DNA of 32,000 bases from Longivirga aurantiaca (lineage in GTDB: Bacteria > Actinomycetota > Actinomycetes > S36-B12 > CAIYMF01): assembly GCF_042660085.1 (NCBI RefSeq), contig NZ_JBHSTI010000008.1:2175604-2207603 (forward strand), written 5' to 3'. A program made the position numbers and the translations under genes. Position 1 is the first letter of the stretch, and each line of letters begins with the position of its first letter. Below the pieces are notes generated by a model, which was not told the origin of the DNA, did not search any database, and saw only the letters and a program-made list of their open reading frames with translations. Positions 4,844 through 23,277 of this stretch are shown piece by piece.

Positions 4844-6112
4844 CTACCCGCGGGCGTCCCGGGCGGCGTACCAGCCGCGAAGACCCGTGGCGTCCTGCCC
4901 GTTGCGCAGCAGCGCGGCCATGACCTGCATGGGCTCGTCGACGTGCCGGAAGAACCGCTGGTAGCCCTCGCACAGGTAGTGCAGGCCCGGCTCGCCGTCC
5001 GGCGTCGTGAGGAACCGGTCCTTCGGGCAGCCGCCGTTGCAGGCGAACCGCACGTCGCAGGAGCGGCAGTACGCCGGCAGCGTGTCGAGCTTGGCGCGGC
5101 CGAACGCCTTCTGCTGCGGCGAGTCGACCATCTGCAGAAGCGTCCTGCCCTCGGCGATGTTGCCGAGCTTGTGCGCGGGCTCGACGTAGTGGTCGCAGGA
5201 GTAGAGGTCGCCGTTGTGCTCGAGCGCGAGCGCCTCGCCGCAGACCTGCGCGTGCACGCAGGCGCCGGTCTGGTGCATGCCGAGCCAGTGCGCGAGCGCG
5301 GTGTCGAAGACGGGCACGAAGACGTCGCCGACGTCCTTGCGCGCCCACTCGTCGAAGACCTCGACGAGGAACTGGCCGTACTGCGCGGCGCCGACCGACC
5401 GGGTCGTGACGAGGTCGCCCTCCTGCTTGTACAGCGGCCGGTCGCGCGCCCGCGAGCCCCAGCCCGCCTCCGCCAGGGGCAGCAGCTCCGGCGTCACCCG
5501 CTCGACGATGGGGATGAGCTGGATGTACTGCGCGCCCAGCTCGTCGCGCAGGAAGCGGTAGACCTCGAGCCCGTGGTCGGCGTTCGCGGCGTTGATGGTC
5601 GTGAGCGCGTTCCACTCGACGCCGTGCTTCTGCAGGGTGCGTAGCCCCGCGATCACCCGGTCGTACGTCGGCTTCCCGCCCTTGTCGACGCGGTAGGCGT
5701 CGTGCATCTCGCGCGGTCCGTCGATCGACACCCCGACGAGGAACCCCTGCTCGGCGAAGAACGCGGCCATCTCGTCGTCGACGAGGGTGGCGTTGGTCTG
5801 CACCGTGTTGAGCACGTGCTGGCCCGGCACGGCGTACCGGCGCTCGAGCTCGACGACCCGACGGAAGAAGTCGGTGCCCATGAGCGTGGGCTCGCCGCCC
5901 TGGAACGCGACCACGACCTCGTCAGCACCCCGGTGCGCGGCGAGCAGCTGCGTGACGTAGGCCTCGAGCACCTCGTCGGGCATCCGGAACTCGCTTCCGG
6001 GGTACAGCGACTCCTTGGACAGGAAGAAGCAGTAGTCGCAGTCGAGGTTGCAGATCGCGCCCGTCGGCTTGCTCATCACGTGGAAGACACGCGGAGCCTG
6101 CGGACCGGTCAT
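4844..6112 (-). CDS. Anaerobic sulfatase-maturating enzyme (radical SAM/SPASM, AslB/AtsB/ChuR family)
   Basis: 422 aa. The radical-SAM motif is CNLDCDYC, followed by GGEPTL. Auxiliary-cluster cysteines are GACVHAQVC...SCDHY, YCRSCDVRFACNGGCPKDR and LHYLCEGY. A strong SD (GGGGAGGGGGG) precedes the ATG, which lies 40 nt downstream of the sulfatase stop. Confidence 0.9.
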   Translation of the reverse strand: MTGPQAPRVFHVMSKPTGAICNLDCDYCFFLSKESLYPGSEFRMPDEVLEAYVTQLLAAHRGADEVVVAFQGGEPTLMGTDFFRRVVELERRYAVPGQHVLNTVQTNATLVDDEMAAFFAEQGFLVGVSIDGPREMHDAYRVDKGGKPTYDRVIAGLRTLQKHGVEWNALTTINAANADHGLEVYRFLRDELGAQYIQLIPIVERVTPELLPLAEAGWGSRARDRPLYKQEGDLVTTRSVGAAQYGQFLVEVFDEWARKDVGDVFVPVFDTALAHWLGMHQTGACVHAQVCGEALALEHNGDLYSCDHYVEPAHKLGNIAEGRTLLQMVDSPQQKAFGRAKLDTLPAYCRSCDVRFACNGGCPKDRFLTTPDGEPGLHYLCEGYQRFFRHVDEPMQVMAALLRNGQDATGLRGWYAARDARG

Positions 6113-6152
6113 CGACCCCCCTCCCCTGCGGGCAGCGCCCGGCGTCCGTCGC

Positions 6153-8504
6153 TCAGTCGAGCATGAACCACCCTCTCACCTCGGCCTCGTGGTCTCGGTA
6201 CGGCGTACCGCTGAGGTCGATGACCACGCGGTCGATCGTGCCGCCGGTGAACCGGAACGGTGCGACGTACGCGCGGGTCACCGGGGATCCGTCGTCGCGG
6301 CCGACGCAGTGCCCGTCCCCCGTCGCGTTGAAGAAGCCCGGCTGTGTCACGAGCGGTGACGTGCCGACCTCCTCGCCGTCGACGTACAGCCGCAGCGTCC
6401 CGGCCGCGCCGGGGCGCGGTGGGGCGCTCTTGCCCTCGGCACTGAACTCGGCGGTGAAGACGTGCGCCCCCGGCGTGATCGCGCGATCGGCCACCACCGT
6501 GGTCGTCTCTATGTCCAGCCAGTTGTAGGCGTAGGCCAGGCGGCCGCCCTGCACGTAGAGGCTGTGGCCCCCGGACACCCCGCCGTGGGCGTAGAGCACG
6601 CCCTCGGCGTCCGCGGATTCGAGCGTCACGCCGGCAGACACCGTGTACGAACGGCCGGGCAACCGGGGACCCGACAGCTCGGGCACCGGCGCCGTGTCCG
6701 GGTAGAACACGTAGCGGTCGCGCGGGGGCGCGCCCGACGGCCGCGGCGACAGCGTCTGCTCGAGCGCGTTGCGGTCGTCGAGGGGCAGGCCGTGGTACTG
6801 GTCGGCGAGCTCGAACCACCGTGCGACGAGCTCCTGAACCTTCTCCGGGTGCTCGGCCGCGACGTTGCGGGCCTGCGCCCGGTCCTCCGCGACGTGGTAG
6901 AGCTCCCACTCGTCTTCCTCGAACTTGCCCCAGCCCGACAGCGGCGGGTGCAGGGTGCACGCCAGCCAGCCGTCCTCGTAGACCGAGCGCTGGCCGAGCA
7001 TGGCGTAGAACTGCGTCGACTTCGCCGGCGCTGCCGGGTCGGTGAGCGCTGCGGCGAAGCTCTCGCCCTCGAGGGGCGACTGCGTGTACCCGGCCACCTC
7101 CGCCGGCGGCTCGAGCCCGATGAGGTCGTAGATCGTGGGGACGACGTCGACCGCGTGGACGTACTGCTGGCGCGGCACGGAGTCGGCGGGGATCCGCGCG
7201 GGCCAGGACACGATGCACATGTCGGCGATGCCGCCCTCGTACCCCGCCCACCGCTTCCAGTAGGGGAACGGGGTGTCGAAGGCCCAGGCCCATCCGGTGT
7301 TGTAGTGGTTGTGCGTCTCCGGGCCGCCGAGCTCGTCGATGTGCTGCAGCGACAGCTCGGTCGGCGTGGCGACGCCGTTGAAGAACTGCCACTCGTTGTA
7401 CGTCCCGTTGGGGCCGCCCTCGCCGCTGGCGCCGTTGTCGCTGACCACGACGACGATCGTGTTGTCGAGCTGCCCGCTCTCCTCGAGGAAGTCCAGCAGA
7501 CGGCCGACCTGGCTGTCGGTGTACTCGACGTAGCCCGCGAAGACCTCGGCCATGCGGACGAAGAGGCGCTTCTCGTCGTCGCTCAGGGTCGCCCACGGGC
7601 GGACGGTGTCGAGGAGCGGCCAGGGCTGCCCGTCGGGGCCGGTCCGCATCGGCTCGCCGTGCGGGTTGATGGGCGAGAGCTCGGTGCCCTCAGGAAGGAG
7701 CCCCAGCTCGACCTGGCGGGCGAGGATCCCCTCGCGGATGGCCTCGTAGCCCTCGTCGAAGACGCCCTTGTAGCGGTCCGCCCACTCCGGCCACACGTGG
7801 TGCGGGGCGTGCGCCGCGTCCAGCGAGAAGTACAGGAACCAGGGCTTGTCCGGGTCGATGGTGGTGGAGTCCTTGATGAACTCGATCGACCTGTCGGTGA
7901 GGTCCCAGGCGATGTGATAGCCCTCGGCCGGCGTCGACGGCGGCTCGACCGGGTGGTTGTCGTGCACGAGGTCGGGGAACCAGCTGCTCGCCTCACCGCC
8001 GAGGAAGCCGTAGAAGCGCTCGAACCCGCGGCCCAGGGGCCAGCGGCGCTTCCACGCGCTCATACCCGTCTCCTCGCCGGGGGTCAGGTGCCACTTGCCC
8101 ACGCAGTACGTGTTGTAGCCCTGCTCGACGAGCACCTCGGAGATGAGCCCGTTCTCGAACGGGATGCGTGTGGAGATGCCGGGGAATCCGGAGCTGAACT
8201 CGGCGATGGTCGCCATGCCGTTGCTCGTGGCGTTGCGGCCCGTGAGCAGGGAGGCTCGCGTCGGCGAGCACAGGGCGGTCGTGTGGAAGTTGGCGAGCTT
8301 CACGCCCCGCTCTGCGATGCGGGTCATCGCCGGGGTGCGCACGGGGCCGCCGAAGGACTCCATCGTCCCGTAGCCCACGTCGTCCCAGCAGATGACCAGG
8401 ACGTTGGGCGAACCCTTCGGCGCCTGCGGCGCCAGGAACGGGGCCCAGTCCGGCTCGGCGTCCCTGATGTCGAGAGCGACCTTCCCCTTCCACTCCACGG
8501 CCAT
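6153..8504 (-). CDS. Arylsulfatase, large AtsA-like type, Cys-type (formylglycine) active site
   Basis: Sulfatase signatures are NVLVICWDDVGYG, the formylglycine motif CSPTRASLLTGR, GKWHL and VVVSDNGASGEGG. A C-terminal extra domain is present. ATG 8504 (MAVEWKG) is preferred because GGAAGGGGA lies 6 nt upstream; the ORF-track start at 8555 adds an Arg-rich 17 aa. No signal peptide is visible. Confidence 0.9.
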   Translation of the reverse strand: MAVEWKGKVALDIRDAEPDWAPFLAPQAPKGSPNVLVICWDDVGYGTMESFGGPVRTPAMTRIAERGVKLANFHTTALCSPTRASLLTGRNATSNGMATIAEFSSGFPGISTRIPFENGLISEVLVEQGYNTYCVGKWHLTPGEETGMSAWKRRWPLGRGFERFYGFLGGEASSWFPDLVHDNHPVEPPSTPAEGYHIAWDLTDRSIEFIKDSTTIDPDKPWFLYFSLDAAHAPHHVWPEWADRYKGVFDEGYEAIREGILARQVELGLLPEGTELSPINPHGEPMRTGPDGQPWPLLDTVRPWATLSDDEKRLFVRMAEVFAGYVEYTDSQVGRLLDFLEESGQLDNTIVVVVSDNGASGEGGPNGTYNEWQFFNGVATPTELSLQHIDELGGPETHNHYNTGWAWAFDTPFPYWKRWAGYEGGIADMCIVSWPARIPADSVPRQQYVHAVDVVPTIYDLIGLEPPAEVAGYTQSPLEGESFAAALTDPAAPAKSTQFYAMLGQRSVYEDGWLACTLHPPLSGWGKFEEDEWELYHVAEDRAQARNVAAEHPEKVQELVARWFELADQYHGLPLDDRNALEQTLSPRPSGAPPRDRYVFYPDTAPVPELSGPRLPGRSYTVSAGVTLESADAEGVLYAHGGVSGGHSLYVQGGRLAYAYNWLDIETTTVVADRAITPGAHVFTAEFSAEGKSAPPRPGAAGTLRLYVDGEEVGTSPLVTQPGFFNATGDGHCVGRDDGSPVTRAYVAPFRFTGGTIDRVVIDLSGTPYRDHEAEVRGWFMLD

Positions 8505-8637
8505 CGTGCATCCCCTTCCAGGTCCCCGGCGCGGAATCGCCCTGCCGCGCACCACCGCCTCGCCGAAGGCGCGCAGATAGCCCGAACCTAGCCACCGCCC
8601 GGCAGCGAAGGGCCGTCAACGGGAAGATCCGCGGCGA

Positions 8638-9373: not shown

Positions 9374-10732
9374 TCACTGGCCCAGCTCGGTGAGCACGGC
9401 GTCGAGCTCGGTCACGAAGCGGTCGGCGTCCTCGATCGAGAAGCAGAGCGGCGGCCGGATCTTCAACGCGTCGTTGTAGATGCCGGCGGTGCCGACGAGC
9501 ACGTGGTGCTCCTTCAGCCCGTTGACGACGGCGAGCGTGAGATCCTCGGCCGCAGCGTACGACTCGAGGCCGAACTCGAGCGCGACGAACAGTCCGGCAC
9601 CGCGGACGTCGCTGATGGCGAGGTGCTGCGACTGCAGCGCGCGCAAGGACTCCTGCAGGTGCGCGCCGACGACGCGCGCGTTGTCCTGCAGCCCCTCGTC
9701 GCGCACGATGTCGAGCACCGCCTGCGCGGCGGCGATGGCGACGGCGTTGCCGCCGAAGGTGTTGAAGTAGCGCATGTCACGGCCGAACTCGGCGACGACC
9801 TCGGGGGTCAGCACGGTGGCCGCGACCGGGAACCCGTTCCCCATCGGCTTGCCGATCGTCATGACGTCCGGCACGAACGGCGAGGCGGCGGTCCCGTGCC
9901 GCTCGAAGCCCCACATCGCATCGCCCGTGCGGCCGAACCCCGGCTGCACCTCGTCGGCGAGGTAGACGCCGCCCGCGGCCGCGACGACGGCGCGCGCCGG
10001 CGCGAGGAAGCCGACGGGGTCGGCGAGCACGCCGTCCGAGGCGAAGATCGAGTCGGCGACGAACGCGGCGAACCGCACCCCGTTCGCCGCGAGGTCGTCG
10101 ATTCCCGCCTGCACCTGCGCGGCGAACCACTCCCCCAGTGACGCGTAGCCCGACCAGTCGACGCGGCGCGGGTCCGGCGCCGGCACCCACCGCACCCAGT
10201 CCGGCAGCGCATCGACCCCCACGAGCGACGGCGAGATCGACGCGATCTCGGTCGAGACGCCGTGGTACGCGTTGCGCGTCACGATCACGCCCGTGCCGCC
10301 CGTGTGCTTCTTGGCGATCCGCAGGGCGAGGTCGTTCGCCTCGGAGCCGGTGCACGTGAAGACCACGTGCCCGAGCTCGTCGGGCAGCGTCGAGAGCAGG
10401 TCCTCGGCGTAGCGCACGATCGACTCGTGGAGGTAGCGCGTGTGGGTGCTCAGCACGGCGGCCTGCTCGGCGATCGCAGCAGTCACCCGCGGATGCGCGT
10501 GCCCGACCGAGGGCACGTTGTTGTACGTGTCGAGGTACTCCACGCCGTCGACGTCGTACAGCTTCGTGCCCGAGCCGCGCACGATGTGCAGCGGCCGGCG
10601 GTAGAAGAGCCGGTACGACGGGCCGAGCGCGTCGATGCGGCGGCGCACGAGATCACCGGTGACCGGGTCGAGCCGGTCGACGTCCTTCGGATCGAAGTAG
10701 GACGAGGGGCCGATCGTCCTGGGCTCGCTCAT
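9374..10732 (-). CDS. Class-III aminotransferase-fold PLP enzyme (possible amino-alcohol phosphate phospho-lyase)
   Basis: 452 aa from ATG 10732 (MSEPRTIG). Motifs are TGSEANDLALR, DEVQPGFGRTG and the PLP-lysine context TIGKPMGNGFP. The ATG overlaps the kinase TGA (ATGA). The 81-aa upstream extension in the ORF track is Arg/Pro-rich and overlaps the kinase gene. Confidence 0.9.
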   Translation of the reverse strand: MSEPRTIGPSSYFDPKDVDRLDPVTGDLVRRRIDALGPSYRLFYRRPLHIVRGSGTKLYDVDGVEYLDTYNNVPSVGHAHPRVTAAIAEQAAVLSTHTRYLHESIVRYAEDLLSTLPDELGHVVFTCTGSEANDLALRIAKKHTGGTGVIVTRNAYHGVSTEIASISPSLVGVDALPDWVRWVPAPDPRRVDWSGYASLGEWFAAQVQAGIDDLAANGVRFAAFVADSIFASDGVLADPVGFLAPARAVVAAAGGVYLADEVQPGFGRTGDAMWGFERHGTAASPFVPDVMTIGKPMGNGFPVAATVLTPEVVAEFGRDMRYFNTFGGNAVAIAAAQAVLDIVRDEGLQDNARVVGAHLQESLRALQSQHLAISDVRGAGLFVALEFGLESYAAAEDLTLAVVNGLKEHHVLVGTAGIYNDALKIRPPLCFSIEDADRFVTELDAVLTELGQ

Positions 10733-11784
10733 GACTCCCCCTGACCCGGGTTCGGCGGCTCGGCAGCGACGAGACGGCGCAGTGCTGCGATCGCGTGGCC
10801 GTTGGCACGCAGCGTGTGGTGGGCGTTGTCGGGGTTGGTCGCGGCGAGCCATGAGTTCACGAGCATCCGCTGCGCCATCCGCGCCCGCACCAGGTGCGGC
10901 AGCAGGTCGATCTCGTCGGCGGTCAGCGGGCGGGTGCTCACGTAGCCGTCCGCGAGGTCGTACGCCGGACGCCACGGGTCGACAGCCGGATCCGCGAGGG
11001 CCTCCACCGAGGGGACGGCGTAGGCCATGGCGACGGCGAGGTCGGCCACCACCGCGGTGCTCACCATGTCGCCGAAGTCGAGGATGCCGCTGACCCAGCC
11101 CTCGTCGTCGACGACGACGTTGTCCATGTTGGCGTCGTTGTGCACCACCTGGTGCCGCACGCGCGCGAGTCCAGGCTCCGTCACGGTGGCGTACCGGTCG
11201 AGCTCGGCCTCGACATCAGCGCGGGCCTCGGCGTCGTCGATGTGCGCCAGGTGCGGTCGCAGGGTCGCGAGCCTCTGCAGGTCCCACGCCAGCACCCGGT
11301 CGGCGCCGGGGTGCGAGAACCGCTCGAGCGCCTGCGACAGCCGGCCGATGGCGGCGCCGACTGCGCGACGCTGCTCGGGCGTCGTCCGGTCGTAGTCGAG
11401 CGTGCGGCCCGGCAGGAACGACAGCACGCGCACGAGCCGGGGCTCGCCGTCGGCGCCGTCGATCCAGGACGACGCCGAGCCGTCGCGGTCGAGCACCACC
11501 CGGGGCACGGGGAAGCCGGGGTCCACGGCCGCGACGTGCTGGAGCGCCGCGAGCTGCATCGCGATGACATCGAGGTCGTCGGCGGGGTTCGCGATCTTCA
11601 GCACGTACCGCTGCTCACCGACCGAGACGCGGAACGTGTCGTCGCGCTCGGTGTCGAACCGACGGATACCCGTGACCTGCAGGCCGTAGCGCTCGATCGC
11701 CAGGTCGGCGGCGCGCTCGACGCCGAGAGGCGTGAACGTCGCGGTGATCGCGTCGTCGGTGCGCAGCTCGTCCACGCGCCGCAC
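10729..11784 (-). CDS. Aminoglycoside-phosphotransferase-fold (APH/choline-kinase-like) kinase
   Basis: 351 aa with a GTG start. It has the catalytic loop VVHNDANMDNVVV (HxDxxxxN), the Mg-binding ILDFGD and a nucleotide-binding Lys context (YVLKIANP). It is translationally coupled to the downstream class-III enzyme. Confidence 0.85.
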   Translation of the reverse strand: MRRVDELRTDDAITATFTPLGVERAADLAIERYGLQVTGIRRFDTERDDTFRVSVGEQRYVLKIANPADDLDVIAMQLAALQHVAAVDPGFPVPRVVLDRDGSASSWIDGADGEPRLVRVLSFLPGRTLDYDRTTPEQRRAVGAAIGRLSQALERFSHPGADRVLAWDLQRLATLRPHLAHIDDAEARADVEAELDRYATVTEPGLARVRHQVVHNDANMDNVVVDDEGWVSGILDFGDMVSTAVVADLAVAMAYAVPSVEALADPAVDPWRPAYDLADGYVSTRPLTADEIDLLPHLVRARMAQRMLVNSWLAATNPDNAHHTLRANGHAIAALRRLVAAEPPNPGQGES

Positions 11785-11801: not shown

Positions 11802-13373
11802 TCAGTCCGCGGGGTCGGTGCGGGTACGCCGGAACCGGGCGCGCAGCACCTCGATGTCGGTCTGCACTACATCCGGGTCGGGATCGCCCTTCTCGCCGTA
11901 CCAGCCCGCGAGCCGGCCGGCGCGGCTGACCGCGCGCAGCCGTCGCTCGACCTGGCTGCGCACCGCGCGCGGAACCACGATGAGGATCTGGTCGCCGCTG
12001 CGCAGCCGCATCTCGCGCGCAGGCACCAGCGGCTCACGGTCACGCGCGATCAGGCTGACGACCGCTCCCTTGGGCAGCCGCAGCTCGCCGATCGTGACCC
12101 CTTGCAGCTTGGACTCGAGCGGCACCTCGAACTGCAGCACGTCGGCCGAGATGTCCTCGAGCGGCGCGGCCTCCACCTCGATCTCGGCCGTGTGCTCGCG
12201 ATCCACCACGCCCAGCCGGCGGGCCAGGTAGGGCAGCGGCGGCGCCTGGATCAGGGTGAAGACCACGACGAGCAGGAAGACCACGTCGAAGATCTCCTGC
12301 GCCACCGGCAGCCCCTGGCTGAGCGGGATCGTCGCGAGCACGACCGGCACCGCGCCCCGCAGCCCGGCCCAGGACAGGAACGCCTGCTCGCGCACGCCGA
12401 CCCGGAAGAGGAACGTCGACAGCACCACCGACGCCGGCCGCGCGATCACGAGCAGCACGGTGCCGAGCACCAGCGCGGTGGGCAGCGCGTCGAGGAGGCG
12501 GTCCGGGCTCGCGAGCAGGCCGAGCAGCACGAACAGCCCGATCTGCGCGATCCAGCCCAGGGCCTCGACAAATCCGACGGTCGTCGAGCGGTGCGGCAGC
12601 TGGGCGTTCCCGAGCCAGAGCGCGGCGACGTAGATGGCGGCGAAGCCCGACGCCTCCACCGCTCCGGCGGCGGCGAAGGCCAGCATCGCCAGCGCGACGG
12701 TCGCGACCGGGTAGAGGCCCGACGACGGCAGTGCGACGCGGCGCAGCATCTCCTGGCCGAGCCGCGCGATCGCCAGGCCGATGAGCACTCCCCCGACGAG
12801 CTCGTAGACGACCAGGGCTGCGGTCGACCAGGGGTTCAGCGCGTCCCAGCCGTCGGAGGAGAGCAGCGTCACGAGCAGGATGGCCAGCGGGTCGTTGAGC
12901 CCCGACTCGGCCTCGAGCGTTGACGACACACGTCGCTTGATCGGCAGCCGGCGCAGCACCGAGAAGACCGCGGCAGCATCGGTCGACGACACGACCGCGC
13001 CGAACAGCAGGGCCGTGCGCAGGTCGAGGCCGAGCAGGAAGTGCAGGAACCCCGCGGTGACGGCGACGCTCACGGCGACGCCGACCGTCGCGAGCATCAG
13101 CGAACGGCCAAGCACGGGTCGGATCGCGTCCCATCGGGTCGTGAAGCCGCCCTCGGCCAGGATGATCGCCAGCGCGACGAAGCCGAGCACGCGGGTCAGC
13201 GCCGCGTCCTCGTACTCGATGCCGAACCCCGCCTCGCCGAGGACGAGGCCGAAGCCGAGGTAGATCAGCAGGGTCGGGAGGCCTGCCCAGCGCGAGAAGC
13301 GCACCGAGACGACGGCGAGCAGCAGCACCCCGGTGCCGACGAGCAGCACCAGGTAGAGGTCGTGCGTGCTCAT
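11802..13373 (-). CDS. K+/H+ antiporter, CPA1 (NhaP2/CvrA-like) with C-terminal TrkA-C/RCK_C domain
   Basis: 523 aa. The multi-TM exchanger core carries VSSTDAAAVFSVL and ESGLNDPLAILL. The C-terminal soluble domain (GVTIGELRLPKGAVVSLIARDRE...SGDQILIVV) is typical of TrkA-C. Confidence 0.85.
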   Translation of the reverse strand: MSTHDLYLVLLVGTGVLLLAVVSVRFSRWAGLPTLLIYLGFGLVLGEAGFGIEYEDAALTRVLGFVALAIILAEGGFTTRWDAIRPVLGRSLMLATVGVAVSVAVTAGFLHFLLGLDLRTALLFGAVVSSTDAAAVFSVLRRLPIKRRVSSTLEAESGLNDPLAILLVTLLSSDGWDALNPWSTAALVVYELVGGVLIGLAIARLGQEMLRRVALPSSGLYPVATVALAMLAFAAAGAVEASGFAAIYVAALWLGNAQLPHRSTTVGFVEALGWIAQIGLFVLLGLLASPDRLLDALPTALVLGTVLLVIARPASVVLSTFLFRVGVREQAFLSWAGLRGAVPVVLATIPLSQGLPVAQEIFDVVFLLVVVFTLIQAPPLPYLARRLGVVDREHTAEIEVEAAPLEDISADVLQFEVPLESKLQGVTIGELRLPKGAVVSLIARDREPLVPAREMRLRSGDQILIVVPRAVRSQVERRLRAVSRAGRLAGWYGEKGDPDPDVVQTDIEVLRARFRRTRTDPAD

Positions 13374-14673: not shown

Positions 14674-16311
14674 TCAGTCGGCGGGAATCGCCTCGACATC
14701 GACTCCGGACATCGCCAGGACGGCTGCCCGCACGGTGGGGAAGCGGGACGTGTCCGGAAGCAGGTCGGTGAGGCCGAGCGCCTCCAGATGCTGATCGAAG
14801 GCGCGACGGGAACGTGCGATCACGAACTGGATCCCCTTGTCGCGCAGCTGCTCGATCATCTTCCGCAGCCCCTCGGCGCCCGAAGCGTCGAGGCTCACCA
14901 CGGCCTCCGCGTCGAGCACTACCGCACGCACCTCGTGCGGGGCGCCGTCCACCGCCTCTCGGACGCGGCCGGCGAAGTAGCGGCTGTTGGCGAAGAACAG
15001 CCGGTCGTCAAGACGGTAGACGACGACTCCGGGCACGACCCTCGCCTTCGGCCGTCGCTGGACGTCGACGAAGCGGCGCGCCACCGGGTCCCAGCCCAGC
15101 ACTGCGTCGCGGGGCTGTGCGCTCGTACGCACGACGTCGATGATGGACAGAAGGACGGCGAGGATCAGCGAAGGCAGCAGGCCGATCGTGATCATCCCCA
15201 GGACCAGGACTCCAGCGATCGCGAACTCGGGCCGTGAGCCCCGCCAGAGCGCTCTCCAGGCCTGGAGGTCGATGAGGCCGAGGGCGGCGAAGATGATGAC
15301 TGCTGCCAGCGTGGCCTTCGGCAGGAGGGCGAGCACGCCTGTCAGGAACAGCAGGACCACCGCGGCCACGGCCACCTGGACGAGCCCGACCACCTGCGTA
15401 CGTCCGCCCACCCGGACGTTGATCGCGGTACGGGATCCACTCGATCCGAGCGGGAAGGACTGCGACAGCCCGGCGGCGAGGTTGACGCCGGCGAGCGCCA
15501 TCAGCTCCTGGTTCGCGTCGACGGGACGGCCGCCGTCGAGGGCGAAGCTGCGTGCAGCGAGGATGGCGTCGGCGAAGCCCACCAGAGCGACCGCGATCGC
15601 GATCGGGACGAGCTGGAGCACCTGCACTGCTCCGACGCCGGGCCAGTCCAAGGCCGGCAGCCCGGCAGGGATGTCCCCCACCAGCGTGACGCCCAGGCCG
15701 TCGAAGTCCCAAGCCCACGATAGGGCGATCGCGATGACGGTCACCGCGAGCAGTGCCGGGAAGCGGGGAAGCCAGCGTGCTCCGACCATGAGCGCCGCCA
15801 ACGACAGGCCCCCGACCAGGAGCTCGAGCTGGTCCACCTGCCCCACGAACCCGGTCAGGAACGACGCGTACTCCTGCAGCGGGGTGTCGCCCTCGACCGC
15901 GACCCCCGTGAACTCGTCGAGCTGGCCCGCGAGGAGGGTGAGCGCAAGACCCGTGAGGAAGCCCAGCAGGACCGACGTCGAGAAGTAGTCGGCGACCCAG
16001 CCGAGGCGGAACACGCGTGCGAGGACGAAGGCCGCCGCCACCAGGAGCGCCATCATCGCGGCCAGCACCGGGTAGTCGGCCGGGTCCGAGCTGATCGCGA
16101 CCAGCGCCGGCCCCACCATGAGCGCCGTGGTCGCGGTCGGTCCCGTCATCAGGTTGCGTGAGGAACCGAGCAGCGCGTACACAGCCAACGGCAGCAGCAG
16201 TCCGTAGAGCCCCGAGACGACCGGCAGCCCCGCCGTCTGCGCATAGGCCATCGATTGGGGGATCGCGATCGCGGCGAGAGCCACGCCGGCGACGAGATCC
16301 GCGCGCAACAC
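14674..16311 (-). CDS. SulP-family anion (sulfate) permease with C-terminal STAS domain
   Basis: 545 aa from GTG 16311. The SulP N-terminal motif is DLVAGVALAAIAIPQSMAYAQTAGLP...YALLGSSR. The STAS domain reads VVVYRLDDRLFFANSRYF...VVLDAEAVVSLDASGAEGLRK. See the findings for the unusual start. Confidence 0.9.
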   Translation of the reverse strand: MLRADLVAGVALAAIAIPQSMAYAQTAGLPVVSGLYGLLLPLAVYALLGSSRNLMTGPTATTALMVGPALVAISSDPADYPVLAAMMALLVAAAFVLARVFRLGWVADYFSTSVLLGFLTGLALTLLAGQLDEFTGVAVEGDTPLQEYASFLTGFVGQVDQLELLVGGLSLAALMVGARWLPRFPALLAVTVIAIALSWAWDFDGLGVTLVGDIPAGLPALDWPGVGAVQVLQLVPIAIAVALVGFADAILAARSFALDGGRPVDANQELMALAGVNLAAGLSQSFPLGSSGSRTAINVRVGGRTQVVGLVQVAVAAVVLLFLTGVLALLPKATLAAVIIFAALGLIDLQAWRALWRGSRPEFAIAGVLVLGMITIGLLPSLILAVLLSIIDVVRTSAQPRDAVLGWDPVARRFVDVQRRPKARVVPGVVVYRLDDRLFFANSRYFAGRVREAVDGAPHEVRAVVLDAEAVVSLDASGAEGLRKMIEQLRDKGIQFVIARSRRAFDQHLEALGLTDLLPDTSRFPTVRAAVLAMSGVDVEAIPAD

Positions 16312-16543
16312 GCGCGGGGAGTATGAGCGCAGGTCCCCGACGAGGGGGGCAAGCGATTCCAGGACCGGGGGTCGGCTCGAGGCGGATGCACCTCGGTCGG
16401 GTCACCCGCCTGCTGCTGGTCCGCCGGCTCAGGGCGTCGCGACTCGTCCATCGCGCACATTGCATCGCACATGCCCCGACCGATGCAGCAGATGCGCCCG
16501 AGAGATTCCGCATTCGCGGTGCATCCCGGGTCGCCACAAGGCC
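16312..16543. promoter_or_regulatory. Divergent intergenic region between SulP and the anSME-remnant/sulfatase operon
   Basis: About 230 nt with no credible ORF, so it must carry the promoters for both divergent units. It contains nested inverted repeats GATGCA-GATGCG...CGCATT-TGCATC (16482-16525) and direct repeats ATCGC(GC)ACAT (16450-16472). No -35/-10 pair could be assigned with confidence. Confidence 0.3.
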
Positions 16544-17158
16544 ATGCTGTCGCTCGTGATGGGGGTGGACGCGTGGACCGCGGTGCCGCGGCCGTTCCAT
16601 GCCATGTCTGCACCCACGGGCGCCATCTGCAACCTCGGCTGCGAGTACTGCTTCTACCTGGCCGATGAGTCCCTCTACCCCGGCGGCTCCTCCCGGATGC
16701 CCGAGGATGTCCTCGAGGGCTACGTGGTCGGGCTCCTCGAGGCGCAGGCAGGTCTGGCGGAGGTGGTCATCGCCTTCGAGGGCGGTGGGCCCACCCGGGT
16801 CGGGAGCCTGGCCGACGCCCGGACACTGCTTCAGATGGTCGACTCCCCGAAGCAGACGGCGTTCGGCACCGCGACACGCGACAGCCTGCCTCAGTGCTTC
16901 CGGCGGTGCGATGTCGGCTTCGCCTGCGGCGGCTGCTGTCCGAAGGACCGTCTGATCGACGCTCCTGGTGGCGAGGCAGGGCTCAACTGGTTCTGCTCGG
17001 GCCACCGGTCGTTCTTCCGGCACATCGACGCACCGATGCGGACGATGGCCGATGTCGTCCCGACCGGCAGCGGCGCCGCCGATGTCATGGGCTGGTATGC
17101 GCAGCACCAGCCTGATCCGCACTCGGCTGCGCCGGCACCCAGTGGAGGAGCACCATGA
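16544..17158 (+). pseudogene. Internally deleted paralog of the anaerobic sulfatase-maturating enzyme (relic or minimal form)
   Basis: It aligns to the intact anSME (4844-6112) only at the N-terminal ~75 aa (AICNLGCEYC, AFEGGGPT) and the C-terminal ~100 aa (RTLLQMVDSP, CDVGFACGGCCPKDR, FFRHIDAPM). About 235 central codons are missing in frame. SD signals are weak at all candidate starts (16544, 16559, 16604). Its TGA overlaps the sulfatase ATG. Confidence 0.6.
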
Positions 17159-20058
17159 GCAAGACGCAGATGCTGATCGTCGCGGGCTACTCAGACGCCG
17201 ACGTCGCAGAAGCCGAGTTCCGGACGCTGGCCGACATGGTGGCGGCGAAGAAGCTGAGCAGCCAGGGGATCATCCTCGTCGGCAAGGGGCCGGACGGCGA
17301 GCCGCGGCTCATGGACACGGGCAACCACCTCGGCCGTCGCGGCGCTGCGTGGGGCGGTGGCGCCGGGGTCCTGGTGGGCCTGTTCGCGCCGCCCATGCTC
17401 GGTGCCGTCGCCGTGGGCGCCGCCGCCGGCGCCGTGGTGGGTCACTTCGCCGGCAACAAGCTGACGGCAGTGGTCCAGGAACAGATCGGAGCGGCCCTGA
17501 AGGCAGGCACCGCCGTCATCATCGGCGTTTTCCCGGCCGAGGACCGTCTTGTCGTCGAGCGCGCCCTGCCGGGAGCACCGCTCAAGTCCGTCGTGGAGAG
17601 CGACGAGGGCGGCATCGACGAGCTGAAGGCCAAGCTGGCCGAGGCGATGGGCAAGTTCCAGCCCGACCGGACGGTGCTGCCCGTCCCGGACAAGCCATTC
17701 AGCGGGGTGGCCGGGCGCACCATCGACGAGTCCGTGGGCGACTGGTCCATCGTCGCGGCCACGAAGGCTCCCGAGGACGCCCCCAACGTGCTCGTGGTGC
17801 TCATCGACGACGCCGGCTTCGGAGGGCCGGACACGTTCGGGGGCGGGATCCGGACGCCGAACCTCAGCCGCGTGCAGCAGCAGGGACTCACCTACAACCG
17901 GTTCCACGTCACGGCCGTCTGCTCGCCCACCCGCGCCGCGCTGCTGACCGGTCGCAACCACCACCGCGTGGGCATGGGGGGTATCGCAGAGTTCCCTGGC
18001 CCCTTCCCTGGCTACACGGGAATCCGACCCAGGGCGACGACCGCCCTGCCGCGGATCCTCAAGGAGAACGGGTACATCACCGGTGGCTTCGGCAAGTGGC
18101 ACATGACTCCCGGCCATGACATGGGCGCGGCCGGGTCGTTCGACCACTGGCCGACCGGGTGGGGCTTCGACCACTGGTGGGGCTTCCTGACCGGTGCAGC
18201 CGGCCAGTACGACCCCATCATCACCCTGGACAACTCGACCCTGGGCGTGCCCGAGGGCGACGACGGCAAGCTCTACTACTTCCCGGACGACATCACCGAC
18301 AAGACCGTCGAGTGGCTGCACGCGGTGCGCGCGCAGGATGCCGACAAGCCCTGGTTCGTCTACTACTCGACCGGAGCGACGCACGCTCCGCACCACGTCG
18401 CCAAGGAGTGGGCCGACAAGTACAAGGGCCAGTTCGATGACGGATGGGACGTCTACCGCGAGCGCACGCTCGAGCGCCAGAAGGCACTCGGCATCGTCCC
18501 GCCCGACACCGAGCTCACCGAGCGGCCCGACATCTTCCCCGCATGGGACAGCCTCTCCGAAGCGGAGCGGAAGCTCTACGCGCGGCAGATGGAGGTCTTC
18601 GCCGGGTTCTCCGAGAACGCCGACTGGAACGTCGGACGGCTGCTCGATGCAGTGGAGGAGATGGGCGAGCTCGACAACACCCTCGTGATCTACATCTGGG
18701 GCGACAACGGCGCGTCCATGGAGGGCACCGTCACCGGTTCGTTCAACGAGACGACGTTCTTCAACGGGCTGGTCCTCGACGCCGAGGAGCAGTTCGCGCT
18801 GATCGACAAGTACGGCGGCATCGCCGAGCTCGGCGGCTTCCACACCGCACCCCACTTCGCGGCTGCGTGGGCGCACGCGAACAACACGCCGTTCCAGTGG
18901 GGGAAGCAGATGGCCAGCCACCTCGGAGGCACTCGCGACCCCATGGTGGTGTCGTGGCCGAAGCGGATCCCCGCAGGCGGAAGCCTGCGCACGCAGTTCA
19001 CCCACTGCATCGACGTCGTCCCCACGATCCTCGAGGTCGTCGGGCTGCCCGTGCCGACGAGCGTGGACGGCGTGGCGCAGGAGCCGATGGACGGAACCAG
19101 CTTCGCCTACACCTTCGACAGCCCTGACGCCGAGGAGCAGCACACCACCCAGTACTTCGAGATGTACGGGAGCCGTGCGATCTACAAGGACGGCTGGTGG
19201 GCCTGCACCAAGCTCGACAAGCTGCCGTGGGACTTCGGGCCGGCGACGCTCGCTCGGTTCGGTCCGGGCAGCGGATGGGACCCGAACGCGGACGTGTGGG
19301 AGCTGTACCACCTCGCCGACGACTTCTCGCAGGCCCGGAACGTCGCGGCCGAGCTCCCTGACAAGGTCGCCGAGCTGGTCGAGCTCTTCTGGTCGGAGGC
19401 CGAACGCAACCGCGTGCTGCCGCTGCTCGGAGGGTTCGCTGCCTTCTTCGGCATCCTCCCGCCCATGCCCACGCAGACCCGGTTCACCTTCGCCGGTGAC
19501 GTCCAGAACATCCAGACGACCATGATCCCGAGGATCTACGGACGCTCGTACGCCATCGAGGCCGACGTGCACGTCCCGGAAGGAGGCGCGCAGGGTGTGC
19601 TCGTGGCGTTCGCCGACTTCATCGGCGGCTTCGCGCTGTGGGTCGACGAGAACGGCCTGCTCAACCACACCTACCAGTACTTGGGCGTCGACACCTACCG
19701 CCAGACGTCGAAGGAGCCGATCCCGACCGGCGATGTCACGTTGAAGATGCTGTTCCAGGCCGACGAGACCAGACCGGGCACCGGGGGCCGCGTGTCCTTG
19801 TGGGCGGACGATCGACAGATCGGCGAGGGCGATCTGCCGCGCACGATCTCGCTGATCTTCAGCACCTACGCCGGCATGGACATCAGCCGGGACAACGGCG
19901 GTGTCGTCGACCTCGACTACGAGGACCGGGCGCCGTATGCGTTCACGGGGACGGTGCGCAACGTCGTCTTCGACCTCGCGCCGCGCGCTCTGGACGATGA
20001 GCTGGCCCTGCACGAAGCCGCATCACGGGCCGCACTCGCTCACGGCGCCGCGGGATAG
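17155..20058 (+). CDS. Arylsulfatase (Cys-type, AtsA-like) with N-terminal DUF1269-like glycine-zipper membrane module
   Basis: 967 aa with GGAGGAG 5 nt before the ATG. Residues 1-165 read MLIVAGYSD...GAAWGGGAGVLVGLFAPPMLGAVAVGAAAGAVVGHFAG...AVIIGVF, the pattern of the DUF1269 family. From about residue 175 it is a full sulfatase with NVLVVLIDDAGFG, CSPTRAALLTGR, GKWHM and IWGDNGASMEG, plus the C-terminal domain shared with the 6153-8504 paralog. Confidence 0.9.
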   Translation: MSKTQMLIVAGYSDADVAEAEFRTLADMVAAKKLSSQGIILVGKGPDGEPRLMDTGNHLGRRGAAWGGGAGVLVGLFAPPMLGAVAVGAAAGAVVGHFAGNKLTAVVQEQIGAALKAGTAVIIGVFPAEDRLVVERALPGAPLKSVVESDEGGIDELKAKLAEAMGKFQPDRTVLPVPDKPFSGVAGRTIDESVGDWSIVAATKAPEDAPNVLVVLIDDAGFGGPDTFGGGIRTPNLSRVQQQGLTYNRFHVTAVCSPTRAALLTGRNHHRVGMGGIAEFPGPFPGYTGIRPRATTALPRILKENGYITGGFGKWHMTPGHDMGAAGSFDHWPTGWGFDHWWGFLTGAAGQYDPIITLDNSTLGVPEGDDGKLYYFPDDITDKTVEWLHAVRAQDADKPWFVYYSTGATHAPHHVAKEWADKYKGQFDDGWDVYRERTLERQKALGIVPPDTELTERPDIFPAWDSLSEAERKLYARQMEVFAGFSENADWNVGRLLDAVEEMGELDNTLVIYIWGDNGASMEGTVTGSFNETTFFNGLVLDAEEQFALIDKYGGIAELGGFHTAPHFAAAWAHANNTPFQWGKQMASHLGGTRDPMVVSWPKRIPAGGSLRTQFTHCIDVVPTILEVVGLPVPTSVDGVAQEPMDGTSFAYTFDSPDAEEQHTTQYFEMYGSRAIYKDGWWACTKLDKLPWDFGPATLARFGPGSGWDPNADVWELYHLADDFSQARNVAAELPDKVAELVELFWSEAERNRVLPLLGGFAAFFGILPPMPTQTRFTFAGDVQNIQTTMIPRIYGRSYAIEADVHVPEGGAQGVLVAFADFIGGFALWVDENGLLNHTYQYLGVDTYRQTSKEPIPTGDVTLKMLFQADETRPGTGGRVSLWADDRQIGEGDLPRTISLIFSTYAGMDISRDNGGVVDLDYEDRAPYAFTGTVRNVVFDLAPRALDDELALHEAASRAALAHGAAG

Positions 20059-21056: not shown

Positions 21057-21356
21057 ATGTCGCTCCTCGGCTGGGGCAAGGCCAGCTGGATCATCAGCCT
21101 GCTGTTCATCCCGTTCCTCACCCCGCTGATCAACGTCGTCACGCAGGGCCCGACGACGGCCCAGCGCGACGCGCAGCGGTACACCGCGATGCGCGCCCAG
21201 CAGGACGACTACGGCCGCAACCTCGCGGCCCGCGCCGATCCCACCGCGCAGATCAAGCTGGCGCACGACCCGCTGCCGTCCGGCACCATCGCCCAGGCCG
21301 AGTTCGACGCCATCACGTCCAAGGCGCTCGCCTGGCCGGAGGGATTCCGCCCATGA
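21057..21356 (+). CDS. Small membrane protein with PLDc_N-like TM segment and SHOCT-like C-terminus
   Basis: 99 aa from an internal ATG of ORF 20847..21356, with GGAAGGA 8 nt upstream. WIISLLFIPFLTPLINVV resembles the PLD-nuclease N-terminal (PLDc_N) motif. The C-terminus SGTIAQAEFDAITSKALA resembles a diverged SHOCT. Its TGA overlaps the SulP ATG (ATGA). Confidence 0.55.
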   Translation: MSLLGWGKASWIISLLFIPFLTPLINVVTQGPTTAQRDAQRYTAMRAQQDDYGRNLAARADPTAQIKLAHDPLPSGTIAQAEFDAITSKALAWPEGFRP

Positions 21357-23023
21357 CGAAGGTGCGCTGGGGGCGCGAGACCACGGCCGGCCTCGCGGGG
21401 GCCATCGGGTCCGTGCCCGACGGGATGGCCACGGCCGTCCTCGCGGGGGCGAACCCGATGGCAGGCCTGTACGCATCCTTCGCCGGGCCGACGGCAGGCG
21501 GACTGCTCCAGTCGACCACCGTCATGGTGGTGGCGACCACCTCAGCTGCGGCGGTGACAACGGCCGAGGTGATGACCGCCGGTCCCGCCGACCCGCTGAG
21601 GACGCTGGCGACCCTGACCGTCCTGGCCGGCGTCTTCATGCTGCTGGCAACCCGGCTGGGGTTCGCCAAGCTGATGCGGTTCGTCTCCGCATCGGTCATG
21701 GGCGGGTTCATGTTCGGGGTGGGGCTCATCCTGATCCTGGGCCAGCTCGCCGACGCCACCGGCGTGACCACCAGCGGAGGCTCCACGCTGGAGAAGGCGC
21801 TGAACACGCTGCGCCAATGGCAATCCTTCGACCTGGCCTCGATGCTCACCGCCGGCGCCGCCATCGCCCTCAGCATCGCCTTCGGCCGCGGAAAGCTGGT
21901 GGCGCTCGCCCCACTGATCGCCATCGCGATCCCCACCCTCGTCCTGGCGGCGACCGATGGCGAGGTGGCCACGGTGGAGTCGACGTCCGGAGCCATCGCG
22001 GTCGGGCTTCCCCCGCTGGTCCTGCCCGACCCGGGCCTGATCTCGCCCACACTGGTCGCGGCGGCGGCGGCCCTCACGATCGTCGTGCTGGTCCAGGCCG
22101 CCGGCGTCGGCGTGGCCTACCCCAACACCGACGGCACGGCCAACGACGTGACCCGCGACTTCTACGCCCAGGGCGGGTCGAACATCGCTTCAGGCCTCGT
22201 CGGCGGCGTACCGGTCGGAGGCAGCGTCGGCCAGACCGAGTTCAACGTCATGGCTGGGGGGCGGACGCGGTGGGCGGTGATCATCAGCGGCCTCTGGATG
22301 CTGGTCTTCGTCGTCGCCCTCGGGCCGGTGCTGTCGGCTGTGCCCATCCCAGCCCTGGCAGGGCTGCTGATCCTGGCCGGCTTCGGCTCCCTGAAGCCGC
22401 GGACGCTGGCCCGCTCCTGGCGCACCGGCAAGGCCTCCGCAGCTGCTGCGCTGATCACCATGGGCGCCACCTTGCTGGTCCCGATCCACATCGCCGTCCT
22501 GGTCGGCGTGGTCCTGTCGCTGCTCCTGTCGGCGATCACCGGGGCGTCGGCGACCCATATCGTCGCCCTGGAACCCGCGGGACCGGGCCACTGGCGTCGC
22601 GCCGCGGTCCCCACCGAACTGGCACCTGGGCAGGTCACCGCCCTCGACATCGAGGGGGCGGGGGGCTTCGTCTCCGTTCCCGCCCTGTTCGCGCAGTTGC
22701 CCGCCGTTCCCGGCGACGGCGGCCGGGAAGGTGAACGGCTCTTCGCCGTCGTCCTGCGGCTGCGCGGCCACCTCCGGACCAACCTAACCTTCACCAAGGC
22801 TCTCGAGGCCTACGGCGAGCAGCTCGCCGCGTCCGGCGGCCACCTGAGCGTATGCGGCCTGCAACCCGGCACCATCGCCCAGCTGCGAGCCGCAGGACTG
22901 CCGGAGACCATCGCGCTCATCGCCCAGGGCGAGGAGACGGACGGGTCGCTGGCAGTCGCCTACGCCCGGGCCGGCGACTGGCTGACGGAGTCGGGGGCGC
23001 AGCCTCCCTCAGACGCGGTCTGA
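21353..23023 (+). CDS. SulP-family anion permease with STAS-like C-terminal domain (second copy, divergent)
   Basis: 556 aa. The multi-TM core has a SulP-like N-terminus (TTAGLAGAIGSVPDGMATAVLAGANPMAGLYASF) and glycine-rich helices. The C-terminal soluble domain (VVLRLRGHLRTNLTFTKALEAYGEQLAASGGHLSVCGL) is STAS-like. Confidence 0.85.
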   Translation: MTKVRWGRETTAGLAGAIGSVPDGMATAVLAGANPMAGLYASFAGPTAGGLLQSTTVMVVATTSAAAVTTAEVMTAGPADPLRTLATLTVLAGVFMLLATRLGFAKLMRFVSASVMGGFMFGVGLILILGQLADATGVTTSGGSTLEKALNTLRQWQSFDLASMLTAGAAIALSIAFGRGKLVALAPLIAIAIPTLVLAATDGEVATVESTSGAIAVGLPPLVLPDPGLISPTLVAAAAALTIVVLVQAAGVGVAYPNTDGTANDVTRDFYAQGGSNIASGLVGGVPVGGSVGQTEFNVMAGGRTRWAVIISGLWMLVFVVALGPVLSAVPIPALAGLLILAGFGSLKPRTLARSWRTGKASAAAALITMGATLLVPIHIAVLVGVVLSLLLSAITGASATHIVALEPAGPGHWRRAAVPTELAPGQVTALDIEGAGGFVSVPALFAQLPAVPGDGGREGERLFAVVLRLRGHLRTNLTFTKALEAYGEQLAASGGHLSVCGLQPGTIAQLRAAGLPETIALIAQGEETDGSLAVAYARAGDWLTESGAQPPSDAV

Positions 23024-23204: not shown

Positions 23205-23277
23205 TGGAGCTGAGGGGACTCGAACCCCTGACCCCCTGCATGCCATGCAGGTGCGCTACCAGCTGCGCCACAGCCCC
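23205..23277 (-). tRNA. tRNA-Ala (anticodon GGC)
   Basis: A manual cloverleaf of the 73-nt reverse complement gives acceptor GGGGCUG/CAGCUCC with the Ala identity pair G3:U70. The D arm is GCGC-AGCUGGUA-GCGC and the anticodon arm is CCUGC-AUGGCAU-GCAGG. The T arm is AGGGG-UUCGAGU-CCCCU and the discriminator is A. CCA is not encoded. Confidence 0.95.

Follow-up and report, generated by a model that had tools for sequence, protein, structure and literature searches.

A sulfatase-linked maturase gene in Longivirga aurantiaca is probably an internally deleted remnant that has kept an open frame

In the genome of Longivirga aurantiaca (Sporichthyales; GC about 72%), a gene for a DUF1269-sulfatase is preceded by a short open reading frame (ORF) whose two ends resemble the sulfatase maturase anSME and whose middle is absent. 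Does this ORF encode a working product, does its translation serve the sulfatase behind it, or is it what is left of a maturase gene? A sequence-only reading of the window, by which we mean the whole 32,000-nt stretch of DNA analyzed here, had leaned toward decay, and this lean is supported by failed family thresholds, changes at invariant sites, the rate of substitution and a series of decay stages in relatives. We conclude that the short ORF is likely a non-functional remnant (pseudogene) of the anSME of a former anSME-sulfatase operon.

The frame can be read from ATG 16544, or from TTG 16460 at the earliest, to the TGA at 17156-17158 (Table 1). Its product is identical to the NCBI 'hypothetical protein ACFQGU_14440' and carries the UniRef name 'Anaerobic sulfatase maturase', but the GenBank, RefSeq and Logan annotations place the start at three different positions (GTG 16556, ATG 16604 and ATG 16544). 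BLASTP against the 422-aa protein encoded at 4844-6112 returns two collinear, gap-free blocks: residues 15-88 of the short product match residues 7-80 of the full one (64% identity, E 1e-30), and residues 85-186 match residues 315-416 (54% identity, E 2e-38). About 234-238 codons are missing (full-length residues ~77/81-314) and the junction is in frame. The two-block match and the in-frame absence of about 235 central codons, both read earlier from the letters, therefore hold, and collinearity over the full length, which would sink the deletion claim, is not seen. The overlap of the short-ORF TGA with the sulfatase ATG, as ATGA at 17155-17158, had also been read correctly. The C-terminal tail of the ORF holds the SD of the sulfatase (GGAGGA, 17144-17149), and its last bases are the TGA of the overlap.

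Table 1. Features of the locus and of the intact maturase gene in the same window.
Feature	Position	Strand	Details
Intact anSME	4844..6112	-	422 aa; TIGR03942 461 bits
Divergent intergenic region, presumed promoter site	16312..16543	.	Between SulP (14674-16311, -) and the probable remnant
Internally deleted anSME, probable remnant	16544..17158	+	204 codons from ATG 16544
N-terminal block	16586..16792	+	Radical-SAM CX3CX2C (C29, C33, C36) through degenerate GGE (GGG); ends ...PT
Deletion junction	16787..16807	+	CCC ACC / CGG GTC GGG AGC (PT/RVGS)
C-terminal block	16796..17101	+	Second half of the SPASM domain
Tail	17102..17158	+	Non-homologous, low-complexity, 18 codons, read through to the first stop
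DUF1269-sulfatase fusion	17155..20058	+	967 aa; Cys-type, CSPTR

Searches with family models place the short ORF outside every anSME family threshold. It scores 106.1 bits against TIGR03942 (cutoff 349.45), in two stretches and far below the intact gene of the window, 111.3 bits against NF010308 (cutoff 484) and 17 bits against the SPASM model TIGR04085 (cutoff 27), and a Pfam search at E <= 0.01 gives no match to it, neither Radical_SAM (PF04055) nor SPASM (PF13186). The lost parts were mapped by aligning the intact paralog at 4844-6112 to anSMEcpe (PDB 4K36), in which Aux I is bound by C255, C261, C276 and C330 and Aux II by C317, C320, C326 and C348 (PMC5715301). The deletion takes out the radical-SAM barrel after beta2, which is most of it, together with the first half of the SPASM domain, and only the equivalent of residues 7-80 is left of the barrel; the alignment thus bears out the suggestion that most of the TIM barrel and the first auxiliary-cluster cysteines are gone. 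Of the four Aux I cysteines only the fourth remains; the counterparts of C255, C261 and C276 fall within the deletion. The Aux II-type cysteines are kept, the first of them moved by one residue (CX2C to CX3C), which agrees with the shift already spotted in LPQCFRRC versus LPAYCRSC. In all, nine cysteines are retained, and the radical-SAM triad is present as C29-N-L-G-C33-E-Y-C36. The SAM-contacting motif GGEP has become GGGP, with loss of a glutamate that is invariant in 21 intact homologs. Because most of the barrel, this glutamate and three Aux I cysteines are lost, the product is predicted to be unable to act as a maturase, to bind SAM or to catalyze, and judging from the 4K36 alignment the retained beta1-alpha1-beta2 piece of the barrel is unlikely to fold alone.

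A comparison of orthologous loci indicates where such an ORF could come from. We searched 80 sulfatase loci (L001-L080) by tblastn for an anSME directly upstream of the sulfatase. A full-length gene is present in L013 (Arthrobacter), L018 (Cellulomonas soli), L024 and L025, an internally deleted one in the window and in L027, a stub of about 200 nt in L022, and nothing detectable at most loci. The relics of L027 and L022 both come from metagenome-assembled genomes. The L027 relic (5368-6003) has an in-frame internal deletion but also at least two frameshifts in 0.57 kb, against none in its 2.9-kb sulfatase, and its first radical-SAM cysteine has become glycine. In the L022 stub (5742-6003) about 30 N-terminal and 45 C-terminal codons remain, shifted in frame and with one radical-SAM cysteine lost; this locus shares the synteny of L018 (LuxR-type regulator, anSME, sulfatase). 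Behind both broken relics the sulfatase is intact. Intact gene, deleted gene, stub and nothing form a decay series at one position, and a full-length anSME is likely the ancestral state for the clade. Relatives carry intact, frame-disrupted or near-vanished versions at this position and no conserved short form. Separately, L074 has an anSME downstream of its sulfatase (11898-13132) in three pieces in different frames; either this is another pseudogene, or long-read indel errors have broken the frame.

On 147 shared columns, the window ORF groups as sister to the intact syntenic gene of C. soli (L018, 4821-6008) with 91% bootstrap. Given this grouping, the deletions in the window and in L027 are independent and the short ORF is no recent in-genome duplicate; its earlier description as a paralog of the 4844-6112 gene is right in that it is an anSME homolog, but it belongs to a separate, sulfatase-linked lineage. 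A deletion shared by descent was considered for the window and L027 and rejected, given that the two relics group together in only 4% of bootstrap replicates and that lineages with the intact state lie between them in the sulfatase tree. Even so, the 3' breakpoints of the two deletions (16793-16801 in the window, 5660-5675 in L027) coincide within three codons, before [LV]-G-[NS], and both relics have a serine just past the junction in place of an asparagine that is invariant in intact genes. Adjacent repeat motifs account for the coincidence only partly, and the site may be a deletion hotspot or mark a selective boundary.

The short-ORF lineage has changed fast and at the wrong sites for a maturase. 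Its branch is about three times longer than that of L018, and the Tajima relative-rate test counts 35 unique replacements in the short ORF versus 13 in L018 (p = 0.0015), with significance for seven outgroups. At positions that are invariant across 21 intact anSMEs, 8 of 47 are altered (K23A, K41D, Q79E, E82G in GGE, N88S, K111T, C119F and L150F), as are 10 of 22 near-invariant ones. Leave-one-out controls give 0-2 invariant changes each, with one divergent outlier at 7/54 (Fisher p about 1e-7). By codon position 1/2/3, unique changes number 24/26/41 in the short ORF and 16/11/25 in L018, an excess of 8/15/16, or about 39 in total and roughly 0.075 per site, that is about equal at positions 2 and 3. 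The changes run toward genomic GC at both positions, 16:6 for AT to GC at position 2 and 15:0 for GC to AT at position 3. Among 22 sequences compared on shared codons, GC2 is highest in the two relics, and GC3 on these codons is 0.88 in the short ORF, 0.95 in its sister gene and 0.98 in the paralog; taken over its full length, the short ORF has a GC3 of 0.84, lower than any of the 20 plausible genes of the window. From composition and counts, this pattern looks like that of an unconstrained phase. The ratio dN/dS, proposed earlier as a discriminating check and computed here with NG86 for pairs and for branches, does not separate the readings: pairwise, it is 0.38-0.51 for short-versus-intact and 0.13-0.47 for intact-versus-intact comparisons, and saturation of dS under the GC3 bias (0.5-1.0 in every pair) makes it uninformative.

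A second strain shows that the deletion is not new. Over 11.5 kb, the Logan assembly SRR22388094 (locus L082) differs from the window by 57 SNPs and one indel (99.5% identity), and it carries the same short ORF, open and with the same junction. Since it is present in this independent assembly, the deletion is real and older than the split of the strains. The only difference between the two short ORFs is R51L, a second-position change at an arginine that all 22 sequences share; one SNP compares with about four expected from neighboring synonymous sites (Poisson p about 0.09, a test of low power). The direction of the strain difference fits an absence of constraint, with numbers too small for a formal test. 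The sulfatase gene is intact, and its differences between the two strains, five synonymous and none nonsynonymous, show it to be under purifying selection. Elsewhere in the alignment, 17 of the 57 SNPs, 15 of them synonymous, lie within 420 nt of a class-III aminotransferase gene (window 9920-10337, L082 172-589), which looks like a recombination tract.

Why, then, is the frame still open? The sequence-only reading found this odd and took it as a pointer to a minimal miniprotein or a spacer kept for coupling; neither inference is borne out. Two 9-bp direct repeats of the intact L018 gene, CTGATGGGC (Leu-Met-Gly) and CTGATCGGC (Leu-Ile-Gly), share their codon phase and are separated by 639 nt, and a deletion between them gives ...GGEPTLIGNLADGRTLLQIVDSP..., exactly the architecture of the window (...GGGPTRVGSLADARTLLQMVDSP...). 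The L027 deletion is likewise accounted for by repeats, GAGCGCCGG and GAGCACCGG. Because GC3 is extreme, repeats in L018 that match at 8 of 9 positions are in phase far more often than out of phase (112 versus 38 pairs; 75% of 150), so a repeat-mediated deletion should keep the frame in far more than a third of cases. In simulations that start from the L018 blocks, a sequence stays free of stop codons with a probability of 0.64-0.44 after 0.05-0.10 neutral substitutions per site. The open frame is thus owed mainly to an in-frame deletion and to the scarcity of stop codons at 72% GC. The ATGA overlap can be traced to the Met-Ser start that is common in this sulfatase: most of the closer orthologs begin ATG-AGY, the window has ATG-AGC, and a remnant simply reads on to the TGA within it, the first in-frame stop. 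The absence of any conserved short form in relatives points the same way.

Selection on the frame in any form, whether as an anti-polarity or coupling leader or as an Fe-S miniprotein, or more broadly with 'hollowed-out' first genes as a recurrent selected route of operon retirement, seems unlikely to us; a hint of such recurrence is the independent in-frame relic of L027, whose 3' breakpoint nearly coincides with that of the window. The least improbable form, though still slightly less probable than selection as a whole, is that the sequence is free to drift while its translation is selected as a leader or spacer that prevents Rho-dependent polarity and delivers ribosomes to the sulfatase start. 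It would explain the in-frame deletion, which the L027 junction repeats, the overlap of stop and start, also found between the ancestral operon genes (the intact L018 anSME likewise overlaps the sulfatase start), and why 173 aligned codons that have taken up about 39 excess, neutral-like substitutions show no frameshifting indel. With an indel-to-substitution ratio of 0.05-0.1, which is our assumption, the probability of no such indel is roughly 0.02-0.14. However, a strong SD of its own, GGAGGA, precedes the sulfatase ATG by 5 nt, and nearly all orthologs have one at about 5-9 nt, with or without a preceding ORF. The earlier impression of weak SD signals is accordingly right for the short ORF, which has none, and wrong for the sulfatase; the intact L018 anSME has GAGGGGG 4 nt before its ATG. 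Having neither an SD nor an agreed start, the short ORF is probably poorly translated. The two frameshifts of L027 and the shifted frame of the L022 stub left the sulfatase intact, and in-phase repeats already account for in-frame deletion. That window, L027 and L022 have all lost internal parts only could also favor a leader, but it would fit a simpler constraint as well, namely that the promoter and the ribosome-binding site of the sulfatase are spared.

Still less probable, and in our view quite improbable, is that the ORF encodes a new cysteine-rich miniprotein of about 20 kDa that binds one or two Fe-S clusters, through CX3CX2C and the remaining SPASM cysteines, or the cysteine-containing peptide of the sulfatase, and acts as an electron carrier, chaperone or regulator for this sulfatase. 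The nine cysteines, with the full radical-SAM triad, four Aux II-type positions and a lost cysteine replaced by its neighbor, would suit such a product, as would a frame that is open and conserved in two strains and the existence of other short ORFs with N- and C-terminal anSME parts in metagenomes. Against it stand the changes at family-invariant residues and their even spread over codon positions, the radical change at an invariant arginine as the sole within-species difference, the lack of an SD, the doubtful folding of the barrel piece and the loss of radical-SAM cysteines and frame in the syntenic relics L027 and L022.

A miniprotein would also be expected to belong to a family, and a conserved 'mini-anSME' family was considered and rejected: each of the short forms with both ends has breakpoints of its own, and most of these forms are singletons or belong to small clusters. 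Among 15 billion proteins, no close relative of the short form was found beyond the same species. A scan of metagenome contigs with the protein and a junction-specific degenerate DNA pattern gave no match, a word-indexed homolog search with the short ORF returned only itself, and a literature search on truncated anSME pseudogenes found nothing relevant. The full-library search did return short anSME-like proteins with both ends from metagenomes (P0004, P0006, P0029, P0061, P0065, P0090, P0105 and P0143), of which P0004 lies downstream of a sulfatase and P0090 and P0006 recur on several contigs; in L081, too, an ORF at 2350-2898 joins a CX3CX2C piece to a C-terminal SPASM piece. Internal deletion seems to be a common fate of anSME genes, although part of this may be ascertainment because the query had both ends. 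An artefact of assembly or annotation that hides a full-length gene is next to impossible, given the same junction in the independent Logan assembly of a different strain, collinear flanks and no collapse-prone repeat.

The remnant reading explains most of these observations together. An anSME-sulfatase operon, still intact in C. soli and some other actinobacteria, would have become redundant in its first gene, plausibly because the intact anSME 10 kb away (4844-6112) made the linked maturase dispensable. Roughly 213-238 central codons would then have been lost through short in-phase direct repeats, in frame by construction, and the remaining sequence, free of amino-acid constraint, would since have drifted by roughly 0.075 substitutions per site. 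Nothing but the two ends, 5' and 3', would survive, as deletions reaching into the promoter or the ribosome-binding site of the sulfatase would abolish its expression. Judged by criteria for a pseudogene, relatives have an intact ortholog at the same position (L018, L013, L024 and L025) and constraint is relaxed relative to the intact sister (35 versus 13; 8/47), whereas the frame is disrupted only in L027 and L022 and neither in the window nor in the second strain. Four observations count against a remnant: the 173 codons free of frameshifting indels, with the low probability computed above under the assumed ratio; the three radical-SAM cysteines kept and the SPASM cysteine 'replaced' by an adjacent one; the 3' breakpoint of L027 within three codons, which is partly explained; and fewer strain differences than expected (1 versus about 4, p about 0.09).

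Directly in front of the intact anSME at 4844-6112 is the gene of another Cys-type sulfatase (6153-8555, -), which has a Laminin_G_3-like C-terminal region; this anSME can plausibly supply maturase activity in trans. The same anSME (4844-8555 locus, -) is 81% identical to the one upstream of the DUF1269-sulfatase in Arthrobacter sp. Ld5 (L013, 4523-5770); maturase genes have apparently changed sulfatase partners. Across the loci the anSME is found upstream of the DUF1269-sulfatase, 4-6 kb downstream of it or not at all. Orthologs of the DUF1269-sulfatase, 70-89% identical, occur in many Actinomycetota and in some Chloroflexota metagenome-assembled genomes. The fusion is unusually conserved across several Actinomycetota orders and genomes labelled Chloroflexia with differing neighbors (L001-L080), and this conservation amid differing neighbors suggests that it may have spread horizontally. 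In the window it is flanked by SulP-family sulfate permease genes, one of which (14674-16311, -) also has a STAS domain and the other of which lies at 21353-23023 (+), and the pair fits a locus for sulfate-ester utilization. The promoter that still drives the sulfatase is presumed to lie in the divergent intergenic region, a location taken from the gene arrangement; a sigma-70 consensus scan of 16312..16543 gave no match, and a promoter and terminator consensus scan together with Rfam found nothing in the remnant region. The only Rfam family match in the window is a tRNA gene (23205-23277, -; RF00005, 64.9 bits). The longest ORFs of the aminotransferase (9374-10975, -) and an APH-family kinase (10729-11784, -) overlap by about 250 nt; because its Pfam domain begins at residue 129, the true start of the aminotransferase is probably further downstream.

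If the short ORF is a remnant, it is misannotated as a protein and should be treated as a relic, and the DUF1269-sulfatase depends on a maturase encoded elsewhere. More generally, in very GC-rich genomes an internally deleted ORF that stays open and in frame is only weak evidence of a function, since in-phase microhomology favors deletions that keep the frame and stop codons seldom occur; pairwise dN/dS is uninformative where dS is saturated. The locus would be a clean case of an operon that decays 'from the inside out' between two limits, the promoter and the downstream ribosome-binding site. Were the minority reading true, selection would act on the translation of a leader and not on its product.

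Compared with known systems, the short ORF is clearly homologous to anSMEs (AtsB, ChuR and anSMEcpe; TIGR03942; PDB 4K36-4K39) over its first ~75 and last ~100 residues. It has their CX3CX2C, the CX5CX3C part of the SPASM motif and FFRH[IV]D, and adjoins a Cys-type sulfatase in an operon-like arrangement, but it lacks about 235 residues and has GGG for GGE and CX3C for CX2C. Its closest counterpart, the C. soli anSME, occupies the same place directly upstream of the orthologous DUF1269-sulfatase and overlaps its start, but is full length, has an SD and evolves about three times more slowly. Twitch-domain radical SAM enzymes show that a reduced SPASM with one auxiliary cluster can work; however, they keep the full barrel and the first SPASM half, exactly the parts missing here. 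With pseudogenes formed by deletion between repeats, the short ORF shares the loss of essential domains, acceleration that is uniform over codon positions, composition moving toward the genomic mean, a lost ribosome-binding site, and patchy presence and progressive shrinkage in relatives. It differs from them in being uninterrupted, annotated as a protein and placed between a presumed promoter and a gene under selection.
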